DNA of 64,000 nt from Eledone cirrhosa (Eukaryota), in NCBI GenBank assembly GCA_964016885.1, contig OZ024746.1, forward strand, positions 5,580,001 through 5,644,000. Direction: 5' to 3'. Below are positions 37,208 through 43,014 of this stretch, in pieces. The notes beneath the pieces are model-generated. The model did no database searches. It saw nothing but the letters and a program-made list of their open reading frames with translations, and was not told the origin of the DNA. Numbering within the stretch: position 1 is the stretch's first letter; each line of letters opens with the position of its first letter. The translations under genes were made by a program, and so were the position numbers.

Positions 37208-37412
37208 ACAAAGGAATTGTGGTAAGGAACCAGGTGGACCATAACGCACCAGAGTAATCAATACTTAGGGTAGTAGAGTGGGAAATAGGAAAAGGTATGA
37301 CCCCGACGGCAGAGCTCAGGCCGTTTCGATGGCTATTTCTGGACAAAATAGCAGTACAGAAATAGCCGTCGAAATGGCTTGAGCTCTGCCGTCGGGGTCA
37401 TACCTTTTCCTA
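37206..37412 (-). mobile_element. Family A element with ~55-bp inverted arms
   Basis: Homologous to 22289-22485; both arms share copy-specific substitutions. Confidence 0.8.
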
Positions 37413-37712: not shown

Positions 37713-38241
37713 GTATATATAAATGGAAAAAAGGAAATTTCATTTCTCACTCTTAGTACGGCTGCTACTTAAATATAAGTATGTACACGTACATAAATAT
37801 ATGTATACAGACGTACAGTAGTATGTATATACATACATACATGCACACATATGTACGTATGGGTTTACCGAACATTTATTATAATGCCCGGTTTGTTTGT
37901 AAACAAACAGCCCGAATTATTAGCCGTACAGTGTTCGGAAACCATCGTTGTCATTTTGTTTAACACTGACAAAGGAACGATGAACTAGTTTCTAGCTTAT
38001 TAGCTATCATCAGCACCGTATACCTTCCTGTCAGTTGATTGAACGTTTGAAAGTATATACTTTCCTTATGCATATTAATGGCTGAACTATCAGGCTAAAA
38101 TTTCTTTAGTAAAAAAATACGGTGAAAGTTTCTATTTTCTAATTTCAAACTTGCTCGCTGTTTCAAAACATACTTACCTGATAAAATAAAGTACCAGTAA
38201 TGTACTGGGTATTTGATGGCGTTGTGCCAAATGTAGAAACA

Positions 38242-38321
<80 letters not shown>

Positions 38322-38468
38322 GTAAAAATACTGGAGCGTGTTGGAGTTAAACACCCTCTTCGTATTATAGAAATGACAGTAAAAAGTATAGCTCAATGTA
38401 GTTAAACAGAGCCGAAAAATTAAGAGAGTAAAACAAAGAAGCCTTCAATACATCAAAAGTCTTTATTA

Positions 38469-38506
38469 GCCGACAATGTTTCGTCCTATTAAGGACTCAT
38501 CAGGGC
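38469..38506 (-). ncRNA. Minimal type I hammerhead ribozyme
   Basis: GCC-CTGATGA-GTCCT taat AGGAC-GAAAC att GTC^GGC followed by TAATAAA; fully canonical core. Confidence 0.85.
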
Positions 38507-40351
38507 AATTAAAACAACAAGAAGTAATATCGGCAGATACAAGCCGGAAGCTCCGAAGAATATGGAGTGTACATACACTAAAGTATTGCAAAAATATATA
38601 ATAAAAATAATAAAAATATATAATAAAAATTACTAAGGATGTATATAACATTAAGAACCATATTACAAATATAGTCCAAAGCAAAAAAACCTAGAGCTAA
38701 ACAAAGGTGGTTATATAGAGCAGGAATTATATATAATACAATGTAATATAATATAATATAATATAATATACCTTTACCAACATTAAAATTACAATAAAAA
38801 TCAAAAGGTACAATATGCATATGTATATATGTGCGCACACGTACACACACATACACATACAACAATACACACATCCATCTTCAACTGCACAAATTAAACC
38901 TTATTAAGAGTTTGAATATAAAAATAAGCATGATAGGAATGAAAATAATAATAATAATAATACCAATACATCTACCCAATATACATGAGGTAATAATATG
39001 ATATAATTATAAGTAGCACATATAATAAATAATAAATAATACAATTATATACTATATAATACAATATAATAGAATAGATAATCTCCGGTTAATTTACACA
39101 AACAATATAGATGTCACAATAATAATATAATAATAATATATTCATATATTAACATTTACAATATACAATATACTAACATTTATAATAAACAATATACAGG
39201 TGCTCAAGTTAACAAATCAATTCATACTGGGTTACAGAGTAGGTGAGGAAAAATAGATTGTACAATACCCCCAAAAAATGTTGATGGTACAAGAGTACAA
39301 ACATCTTACATGATATATAAAGTTTAACATATCATAATGTTACATATAGTTAACGGTAAGTAATAAGGATCAATATTACAATAAAAAATACAATATAATA
39401 TAATATATTATATAAAATAAATTAACACAATATAATATATAATTACTTATAATTACAAGGTTGGTAGACAGACATGTATATGGATGAGTGAGTAAGTGCC
39501 AGACAGTAAATATAATGCACAGTAGTATTACAAATAAAATATAAAATATAAAATATAGAATAAAATAAATAAATAGAATCAACCGGAAATTAAAAAACAA
39601 AAACAAACGTATACATTTAGGTCTCACATGCAGTTAAGTAGTTAAGCAAAAACTAAGGAAACAACCCCTGTAAATGACTCGAAAACCCTATTTGATAAAT
39701 TAATATAAAAAATATTTAAACTATCCAATAAGGCAGTATAATATAAGCTATAGTTTAAGTCATTAAAGTTTATAAACGTTAATATTTCGTTACAAATGTT
39801 TACAAAAAGGAATGAAATTTGTTTACTATCATATACATAATGATATCTAAAAAACTGACTTAAGCAGAATTAAGGTAGGCTAATAGGGACAGAAATGAAG
39901 AAATGTATGGAGGATGCAAAGAGGCATAAAATATAGTCGATATACTATATTACATAATAGAAAGGAGCATAGTCAATTTGGAGGGGTTGACAATAAGTTT
40001 ATGTGCGCATGGGGGGGGGGGGTTCAAAAGAAGAATCCGAATAAAAATAAAAATAAAAATAAGAATAAAATAAAATAAATAGCGTAAAATATATAATCTT
40101 ATATACATTCATAAGGTGTAATAGTGAAAATTTAATGCGTAAGAAGATAGATATGGTACAGTAGCCAAAAGATTATGAGAGCTAGAATAAAGAGTCATCA
40201 AAAACCAATGATAATAATGATGATAATAATAATGTTGGCAAACAAAAGAACCTAAACTAAAAAATAAATAATGGAATATATCAGCTAATGGGTACAATTT
40301 GTACTACTAGAACGTTTAGGTTTATAATAAAAGTATGAATTAGAAATAGCG

Positions 40352-40474
40352 TGGGGGGCAAGAAGAGAATATTTCAGACTTTCTATTAAGTAAAGATGCG
40401 CTAGAGAAGATTATAGAGTGTGTCTCGAGGATACAGAGATTACAAAACTTAGTATGTGTAGAAAGGTGGTTAGA
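40352..40474 (-). pseudogene. Penelope/Naiad-like endonuclease C-terminal remnant
   Basis: SNHLSTHTKFCNLCILETHSIIFSSASLLNRKSEIFSSCP resembles the CxLCxxEKxxI...LLNxRxE...CxH motif. Confidence 0.7.
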
Positions 40475-40524
40475 GCGGCTAATAAAGACTTTTGATGTAT
40501 TGAAGGCTTCTTTGTTTTACTCTC

Positions 40525-40595
<71 letters not shown>

Positions 40596-40597
<2 letters not shown>

Positions 40598-40830
40598 AGT
40601 TGAATAAATGAACAGAGAACAAAAAACAGAGAGGCAGTACAAATGATATGGTTTTTAGTTTCACGCTTGAGAGTGGGGGGTGGGGGATGACGTTTTGGGC
40701 ATAAGCCCTTCACCAGGAGAACAGTGGGAGGGTGTGTGGGGGAGTGGTGGAAAGACATTTAAAAAAGAGGGGGGAATACAATTTTTAAAGAGTAAAGGGA
40801 ATTTTTTAAAAGTACAAATAAAAATTAAAA
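40596..40830 (-). mobile_element. Family D element with decayed hammerhead
   Basis: Minus strand CTGGTGA-A-GGGC ttat GCCC-AAAACGTC (40688-40716), homologous to 2700-2905. Confidence 0.65.
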
Positions 40831-41738: not shown

Positions 41739-41985
41739 ATCCTTACGGTGTCGATAAAATAAAGTACGAGTAATACACTGGGTATTTGCTGGCCTTGTGC
41801 CAAAAATAGAAACAATTATGTAGAGGATCGGACGCCATGCTTTTCAGCACAGTTACGTCCCTTTACGGTCTGAGTTCAAATCCCGCCGAGGTTAACTTTG
41901 CCTTTTATCCTTACGGGGTCGATAAAATAAAGTACCAGTAATGTACTGGGTAATTGCTGGCCTTGTGCCAAAAGTAGAATCAATG
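41739..41985 (+). mobile_element. Meta-domain SINE 3' fragment plus tandem near-full copy
   Basis: Two consecutive matches to the consensus. Confidence 0.9.
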
Positions 41986-43014
41986 ATATTTCCCTTTGTT
42001 TCTCACTATTGTGATTACATTTCCATTACCCAGCCACAAGTATGTCATAAGATTAGAAGTAATACAATGAATATGATCCACTATATTCATACACAGCCAC
42101 ACACTCACACATAGACACAAACAAAAGCACGCAAGTGCACACACACACACATACACACACGCACATATATATAAATATGTGTGTGTATGTGTGTGTTTAT
42201 CTGTATGTGTTTGTATGTGTGTATGAATAACCCCACAAGATGATTTATCCCTTCCGAGTTCACCACTTAATCCCTCCAGTTTTATCGCACTTCATTTAAT
42301 CCATTCAAGTCCGTCTTTCACCTTTGTACTGGCACAATTGGTTTATTTTGGATTGAAAATATATTTCTCATCAATAAAACTTGCTGGTAAACATCACTAT
42401 AGATTCGTCACAACAGAATAACCTCAACCTCTTCCCCTTCTCTTCCCCATTCCCCCTGATACATTATCGGACCCCGTCAACTATGCAGTATTTGAAAAAA
42501 AGAGAGAAAAATTGTTTGCAATGTAAAGATATATTAAAGAATAATGAGTTAATGGAATGGCTAAGAAATGTAAATAATGTCCAGTCTCTATAAATAAACA
42601 ACCTGTCAACTATGGAATTTATTTCATTCCACTGGTCTGGAATAACGAATTGAGATCAATGTAACAATTGTCAGCACTCTAACGTGTCCCAATAGCTGCT
42701 GGCAAGTGCCAATGGGCCATTTCCTGTTACATCAATTTTCAATTTAATGCATATTACACTTGTCGTTAGATTTCTTATTTCGATACTCCTGGCTCAAATA
42801 AATACAGCCTTCGATAACAGAACAAACAATGGATGCATTCAGTCTATATTTACTGGATGGCGAGGAAGAAAAGAAGAAAAAACATACGCCCTCAATGTTG
42901 CTTCCCGTTTCTTGTCGATTTTTACTAAATTTCACTGTATTTATTCCTCCTCATATATTTTATTGCAACAAAGAGTTCGCAGTTTTTTAGTAATTATCTA
43001 GCGCTCTCATATGT

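Follow-up and report, generated by a model that had tools for sequence, protein, structure and literature searches.

Within the window analysed (the whole stretch of 64,000 nucleotides from Eledone cirrhosa), the element at 38319-40529 is, as judged from its sequence, a 5'-truncated Penelope-like retrotransposon of a young family that bears Hydra-clade motifs. This copy is best explained, with a probability of about 0.82, as a head-to-head, 5'-truncated insertion in which two target-primed cDNAs were made on uncut RNA and joined through homology, the start of the inverted arm at a predicted hammerhead cut site being coincidental. The identity of the element, its (TA)n target, its fixed ends at +153 and +53 (positions counted from the predicted cut, with +1 at 38471), the strict pairing of these ends, the scatter of breakpoints and an excess of microhomology are directly established.

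Structure of the insertion

The insertion and its flanks comprise the following features.

38242-38318, no strand: left (TA)n flank, the target (period 2, 38.5 copies)
38319-38418, minus strand: 100-nt 'tail', +54 to +153 from the predicted cut, missing from the inverted arm
38419-38471, minus strand: pLTR segment +1 to +53, repeated in the arm; in 245 of 463 subfamily ends it is followed by a non-T base and not by the tail
38465-38509, minus strand: type I hammerhead motif (RF00163 match), cut predicted between 38472 and 38471
38510-40284, minus strand: long AT-rich 3' untranslated region without a long ORF, collinear with the full-length copy L094
40285-40476, minus strand: 3' end of the RT-endonuclease ORF, ~60 codons that cover the final part of the GIY-YIG domain with CxxC and CxH
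40476-40486: head-to-head junction, with 2 nt of exact microhomology (40476-40477) inside a 10-of-12 imperfect match between the arm and the sequence with which the body would have continued
40476-40529, plus strand: tail-less inverted arm of 53-54 nt, a perfect copy of -1/+1 to +53
40528-40598, no strand: right (AT)n flank (repeat scan)

The locus therefore reads as ~60 codons, a ~1.8 kb 3' UTR, the hammerhead, 53 nt and the 100-nt tail. An inverted-repeat search paired 38419-38472 with 40476-40529 as arms of 54 nt that are 100% complementary and 2,003 nt apart, which is far above chance, and a repeat scan placed (TA)n against both outer ends of the 38319-40529 element. The original prediction, that 40477-40529 is an inverted copy of 38419-38471 reaching (TA)n, is confirmed by the perfect 54-nt match and by the (AT)n at 40528-40598. 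The arm does begin at the predicted hammerhead cut, as had been claimed, though its first base may be -1, +1 or +2 because of the 2-nt microhomology and the 10-of-12 match. The single nucleotide of junction microhomology first reported was an undercount of the 2 nt present at 40476-40477, with 20 of 22 intact copies continuing the body with these same two bases and with body and arm agreeing in 10 of 12 columns over the junction. The body itself is 5'-truncated inside the endonuclease domain, in the 40285-40476 segment, where the reading frame is broken within a G/C run near 40353-40358.

The outer end of the tail is the distal fixed end of the family and a first putative RT start site; the same outer base, or one within 3 nt of it, ends the 40 best copies, which were those scored. 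In tandem copies the tail reads on into the ORF leader. Position 38419 is the proximal fixed end and a second putative RT start site.

Two other repeats lie in the vicinity. Inverted arms of 59 nt, 93% complementary and 9 nt apart, are found at 37286-37412, 900 nt to the left of the insertion, and form a long, GC-richer hairpin or MITE-like element. A dispersed repeat of ~80 nt is present in three copies (38166-38246, 41739-41819 and 41907-41987) that are 77-90% alike, and the element was inserted in the (TA)n following the first of these.

Identity of the element and its family

A search of the genome with the 302 nt of the left end returned 2,911 first-look candidates, and the best 40 of the 2,911, which were scored, are 98-100% identical. 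The window body is collinear with L094 and 94.5% identical over 2,209 columns. Full copies carry a single ORF of ~890 aa (the stop-to-stop frame measures 913 aa in L102 and 963 aa in L094), in which D..YRDD motifs, presumably of RT type, are accompanied by DKT (ADKTKN), a CxCX5C linker (CNCRVSANC) and, near the end, CxxC (CNLC) and CxH (CPH). The GIY-YIG endonuclease is C-terminal (VY..YIG core); CCHH is absent and there is no cysteine pair between the VY..YIG halves. In the three ORFs searched against Pfam, one gave a sub-threshold GIY-YIG match (E 0.0027) and none gave an RT domain match. By its motifs, this combination of RT and C-terminal GIY-YIG in one ORF is that of EN+ Penelope-like elements (PLEs), as is the presence of pLTRs that are partly tandem and inverted with one end tailed. 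Asn/Ser/Pro-rich low-complexity stretches also lie between the RT and the linker zinc finger (residues ~555-700 and ~765-810 of L094 P0001), recalling the N-rich inserts described for rotifer PLEs in the accessible text of PMC3846280.

Hydra-clade C-terminal EN+ PLEs, as presented in the accessible text of PMC8557442, share with this family the single RT-GIY-YIG ORF, DKT, CxCX5C, the lack of CCHH, CxxC/CxH near the end, a canonical hammerhead and (TA)n targets, and TA repeats adjoin 295 of 317 family ends here. In contrast to the RWK of that clade, RWR occupies the expected N-terminal place in the ORF, and placement in the clade is by motifs only. The unit is also larger, at 4.6-4.7 kb (4,592-4,743 nt cut to cut in all three tandem copies measured), owing to the ~1.8-kb 3' UTR; the <3 kb of the Hydra clade is a tendency and not a strict definition. 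The family has thousands of genomic ends: an exact 25-nt anchor identified 463 in the window's subfamily, and a shared 20-nt anchor 3,356 in the whole family, including a larger GUU and a smaller GUA subfamily.

The hammerhead motif

On the minus strand, 38465-38509 gives a whole-model match to Rfam Hammerhead_1 (RF00163) with 31.7 bits and an E-value of 3.8e-6. The gathering score is 34, and at that threshold Rfam has no match anywhere in the 64-kb window, so that the hammerhead emerges by E-value only. CUGAUGA, stem II, GAAA and GUC can be read directly, in agreement with the definition of a type I hammerhead (CUGANGA, GAAA, an NUH triplet and stems I-III). With the RF00163 match and a canonical cut after GUC, the minus-strand hammerhead originally proposed, cutting at 38472/38471, stands as a prediction. 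Its core is kept in 13 aligned copies. The cleavage triplets of 160 copies read included GUC (106), GUU (42) and GUA (5), with no GUG, and all three obey the NUH rule. A junction pattern aimed at +1 had 1,916 matches, mostly in GUU/GUA sister subfamilies, and among 100 of the 1,916 matches listed the third base of the triplet was T in 94, A in 6 and G in none. The hammerhead core is retained in such sister subfamilies with GUU or GUA triplets (L201-L230).

Stem III has just 2 bp, with a 3-nt near-palindromic loop, and is unformed in the monomer MFE structure. Folding of the monomer did not yield the ribozyme fold and gave weak z-scores (-1.3 to -2.1). A hairpin at +5 to +41 was considered as a start-site signal and rejected, being no more stable than shuffled sequences (z -0.5 to -1.0). 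Short stem III is typical of dimer-type hammerhead motifs, and pLTR hammerheads are reported to have low activity and probably to function as dimers, with RNA processing or circularisation proposed as roles (accessible text of PMC4209133). The role of the hammerhead in PLEs is described as unclear in the available text of PMC8557442.

Junction positions relative to the predicted cut

The original prediction regarded the arm as a run-off cDNA on cleaved RNA, and so as a genomic fossil of self-cleavage in vivo, and called for a spike of inverted-arm breakpoints at the GTC^ position. The breakpoint map gave no such spike, with 6 cut-compatible junctions against a mean of 8.4 at neighbouring positions, and the run-off origin has not been borne out. 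The sample from the window's subfamily comprised 94 rows differing at -62, drawn from the 463 ends. Once intact and internally deleted copies are removed, the junctions are scattered over -62 to +27 at ~1 per nt, with a leftmost match at -1 or +1 in no copy other than that of the window. Peaks seemed to be present at -4 and -8 in this small sample, but did not stand out in the larger one and were dropped.

In the family as a whole, a pattern for junctions at -13 or later had 228 matches among the 3,356 ends, of which 100 (contigs C1 to early C8; 99 unique) were examined. Manual curation removed 16 rows (internal deletions, duplications and diverged intact copies) and corrected 7, leaving 83 junctions within -13 to +11. 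The 6 of these 83 that are cut-compatible, with microhomology allowed, are to be compared with the mean of 8.4 for the 19 neighbouring positions; the cut ranks 14th of 20 positions (Poisson probability of at least 6, 0.84) and carries a fractional weight of 1.9, as against 3.6 for its neighbours. Junctions lie wholly upstream of the cut in 37 of the 83 and wholly downstream in 34. Scaled by 228/100 with an assumed capture of 0.72, the cut-compatible share is at most ~1.2% of ends. From the neighbour mean, by rough scaling, ~27 cut-compatible junctions would be expected by chance genome-wide. A genome-wide pattern for junctions at -2 to +1 returned 22 rows, which on manual reading comprise ~7 cut-compatible terminal junctions (the window included), 9 that are incompatible or ambiguous because of filler bases, 5 internal deletions and 1 diverged intact copy.

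Upstream pLTRs that read into the ORF are the place where a signature like that of R2 is most expected, and 0 of 14 start at +1; all reach from 13 to ~1,500 nt further upstream. Similarly, none of the first 30 of 245 tail-less arms (in genome order, of any length) starts at the cut. The starts of these 30 range from about +25 to beyond -1,500, some being approximate owing to BLAST overshoot, and repeated values of -946 are probably chain breaks. A true fixed end looks different, 245 of 463 ends leaving the element at +53. Most arms hold sequence upstream of the cut and were therefore copied from uncut (or re-ligated) RNA. In R2 elements with an HDV-like ribozyme, the cut defines the 5' junction of inserted copies (accessible text of PMC3774820), whereas the 5' junctions here are not concentrated at the cut among the 83 junctions, the 14 upstream pLTRs and the 30 tail-less ends.

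Two near-intact copies (L345 and L347, near 1500) have deletions of 6 nt and 4 nt that end at, or one base before, the predicted cut. Both are non-slippage deletions on manual reading and could represent RT jumps over nicked RNA, but they are just two cases and similar internal deletions occur elsewhere.

Homology at the junction

Microhomology of at least 2 nt was present at 32 of 55 inverted junction ends, against ~23% expected. Of the 4,673 sites in the unit, the one at which the body was joined in the window copy scores highest for an arm that ends at -1 and falls in the top 2 for an arm that ends at +1. The junction also ties for the top homology score among the 44 junction ends compared, and p is below 0.01 for 7 of these 44. 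We infer that the window join was guided by homology, and the body breakpoint would then be fixed once the arm end was given, or both would be if both cDNAs had been trimmed. Homology explains the point at which the body was joined and not why the arm ended where it did, and an end at +1 pairs too.

The chief alternative, which we consider unlikely, is that the arm is a rare fossil of cleavage, the second RT having run off a hammerhead-cleaved RNA at its 5'-OH end (+1) and the resulting cDNA end having then annealed to its best match in the other cDNA. The +1 position does fall within the 3-position ambiguity, its end still pairs over 9 bp at one of the two best body sites, and the triplets of the family (GUC, GUU and GUA) are those that the NUH rule allows. 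R2 provides a precedent for a ribozyme cut that can set a genomic 5' junction (PMC3774820, accessible text). The ~7 cut-compatible rows among 22 and the two small deletions at or beside the cut could likewise be accommodated, but they are set against ~27 junctions expected from background, the absence of an excess at the cut, the failure of any of the 14 upstream pLTRs to start at +1 and the upper bound of ~1.2% of ends. It is similarly doubtful that the hammerhead cuts RNA in the germ line and is restrained while integration takes place, which would make at most about 1% of cDNAs run-offs, the window arm among them. That such an arm was captured by 9-bp annealing inside an obligately asymmetric two-start (tailed plus tail-less) integration complex also seems improbable. 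If true, the window arm would offer a first trace, in a genome, of in vivo cleavage by a PLE hammerhead.

Pairing of tailed and tail-less ends

Head-to-head pairs numbered 89 among loci L001-L351 and the window, and in 80 both outer ends lie in (TA)n. All 80 combine one tailed end (+153) with one tail-less end (+53), a pairing expected in 49% of cases from the end frequencies (P 2e-25). The loci came from several searches, two of which selected one end type and left that of the partner free. The other nine pairs comprise five with an arm on an upstream pLTR (far end unscored), two at locus edges and two that pair like with like, in each of which one end is outside (TA)n. Some ends have additional features. 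At L095:118-513, a fragment of tail lies ~290 nt past a tail-less-looking end, as if an expansion or insertion of (TA)n at +53 had split a tailed end. Tandem reiterations of a ~10-nt word precede (TA)n at the tail-less ends of L214 (1459-1500 region) and L218, which suggests that initiation at the putative proximal start site was repeated.

In 28 of the 80 pairs the tailed arm exceeds the tail-less one by more than 50 nt, in 25 the reverse holds, and in 27 the two are within 50 nt of each other, in a sample biased toward short arms. Tail-less arms reach ~4 kb and include the ORF. Two RNA-templated syntheses would be required, because fold-back of a short tailed cDNA gives no 4-kb tail-less arm and that of a tail-less cDNA gives no tail. 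The second target-primed RT event of the original prediction is therefore supported by inference from the 80 pairs as regards the two syntheses, but not as regards a cleaved RNA template, for which a spike is lacking. Near-symmetric inverted events are nevertheless in excess (15 of 46, against ~17% expected; P 0.007), so that arm lengths are incompletely independent, and coupling of the two syntheses, or fold-back in some events, may be involved. Near-perfect fold-back junctions were seen at L178, L273, L276, L286, L314, L148, L271, L312, L317 and L326, centred on short self-complementary words in or just after the hammerhead.

It is rather improbable that the window structure arose from one cDNA by fold-back, self-priming or template switching, or by later microhomology-mediated loss of the middle of a longer inverted copy. 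Self-priming has been proposed from palindromic junctions in rotifer PLEs (PMC3846280, accessible text), and the enrichment of near-symmetric junctions on short self-complementary words would agree with it; the window copy, however, is highly asymmetric (54 nt against 2,158 nt), and the longer tail-less arms in 25 of the 80 pairs, together with a tail that could not be copied from a tail-less strand, argue further against it. A later deletion would suit the strong homology at the window junction, but is compatible with two primings and would equally cut the link to cleavage. An assembly artefact from a chimeric inverted read is highly improbable: inverted repeats beside long (TA)n are hard to assemble, but a chimeric read should give a symmetric fold, whereas the arm ends at the fixed +53, is tail-less like its counterpart in all 80 pairs and is joined at a 10-of-12 homology.

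A model of integration

Two target-primed cDNAs on uncut RNA, the preferred reading, could arise as follows. The GIY-YIG endonuclease would nick both strands of (TA)n, with one 3'-OH priming at +153 and its partner at +53. Each would use a separate copy of the pLTR, located either on different RNAs or on the same tandem RNA, and both primings would perhaps occur inside one protein dimer. The cDNAs would stop, or be trimmed, at variable points, and their 3' ends would anneal via microhomology before fill-in. In the window copy, one cDNA would have been extended by ~2.15 kb, as far as the endonuclease coding sequence, and ~54 nt of its partner would be left after joining.

Twin priming in L1 likewise starts from two nicks in the target, and the cDNAs primed there are linked through microhomology to give an inversion, as is proposed here. 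The pieces of L1 are adjacent parts of one template, whereas the arms here overlap and both start in the pLTR, which calls for two pLTR templates. The literature search found no PLE paper in which the term twin priming is used.

Comparison with other Penelope-like elements

Known features of PLE insertions are pLTRs, a 5'-truncated copy in inverted orientation and a tail that is confined to one end (accessible texts of PMC8557442 and PMC3846280). The head-to-head 5' inverted copy, partial tandems, one-end tail and microhomology or palindromes at junctions that characterise the canonical architecture (PMC3846280, in part) are all shared by this family. The tail here is 100 nt, as against a known 30-40 nt in the source text available, and the pairing is strict (80/80), whereas the two papers, in their accessible parts, state that it occurs 'often' or 'optionally' (PMC8557442, PMC3846280).

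The closest experimental data are for the anole Poseidon element PAc, as given in the accessible text of PMC11167929. In PAc, the tail is bounded by two internal RT start sites, each of the target strands is cleaved and extended, and a dimer is predicted for the protein. Hammerhead (HHR) mutants insert normally, no RNA-seq reads start or end at the cut, and unprocessed RNA is the main substrate in vitro (PMC11167929). Common to PAc and the present family are two start sites bounding the tail, AT-rich targets and a pLTR hammerhead without a trace at insertion ends. They differ in that the present family belongs to another clade and is known from sequence, its putative start sites are 100 nt apart, and its ORF starts ~230 nt downstream of the cut, outside the ribozyme (compared with the same part of PMC11167929).

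Significance

A pile-up of junctions at the cut would have provided direct evidence from the genome that cleavage occurs in vivo. The start of the window arm at the cut is instead likely to reflect chance in a join guided by homology, and not cutting by the ribozyme in cells. The missing spike does not show that the ribozyme is inactive, its catalysis, predicted from sequence, being a separate question, and a circular-template model likewise predicts no spike; circles that are cut and re-ligated would leave no such mark. A literature search, made mostly without subscription papers or supplements, returned none mapping PLE 5' junctions against the hammerhead cut and none counting PLE tail pairing. 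The one-end tail is already known qualitatively, while the strict pairing in 80 of 80 was not found in the literature covered.

The reading of the arm as a relic of cleavage is not supported, and the value that remains lies in the negative result and in the strict end pairing. That a family of ~3,400 ends shows no spike is a useful negative, which carries the in vitro finding on the anole element over to a second clade. The pairing of one tailed with one tail-less end in all 80 insertions sharply limits, in a way that can be tested, the possible uses of the two RT start sites.
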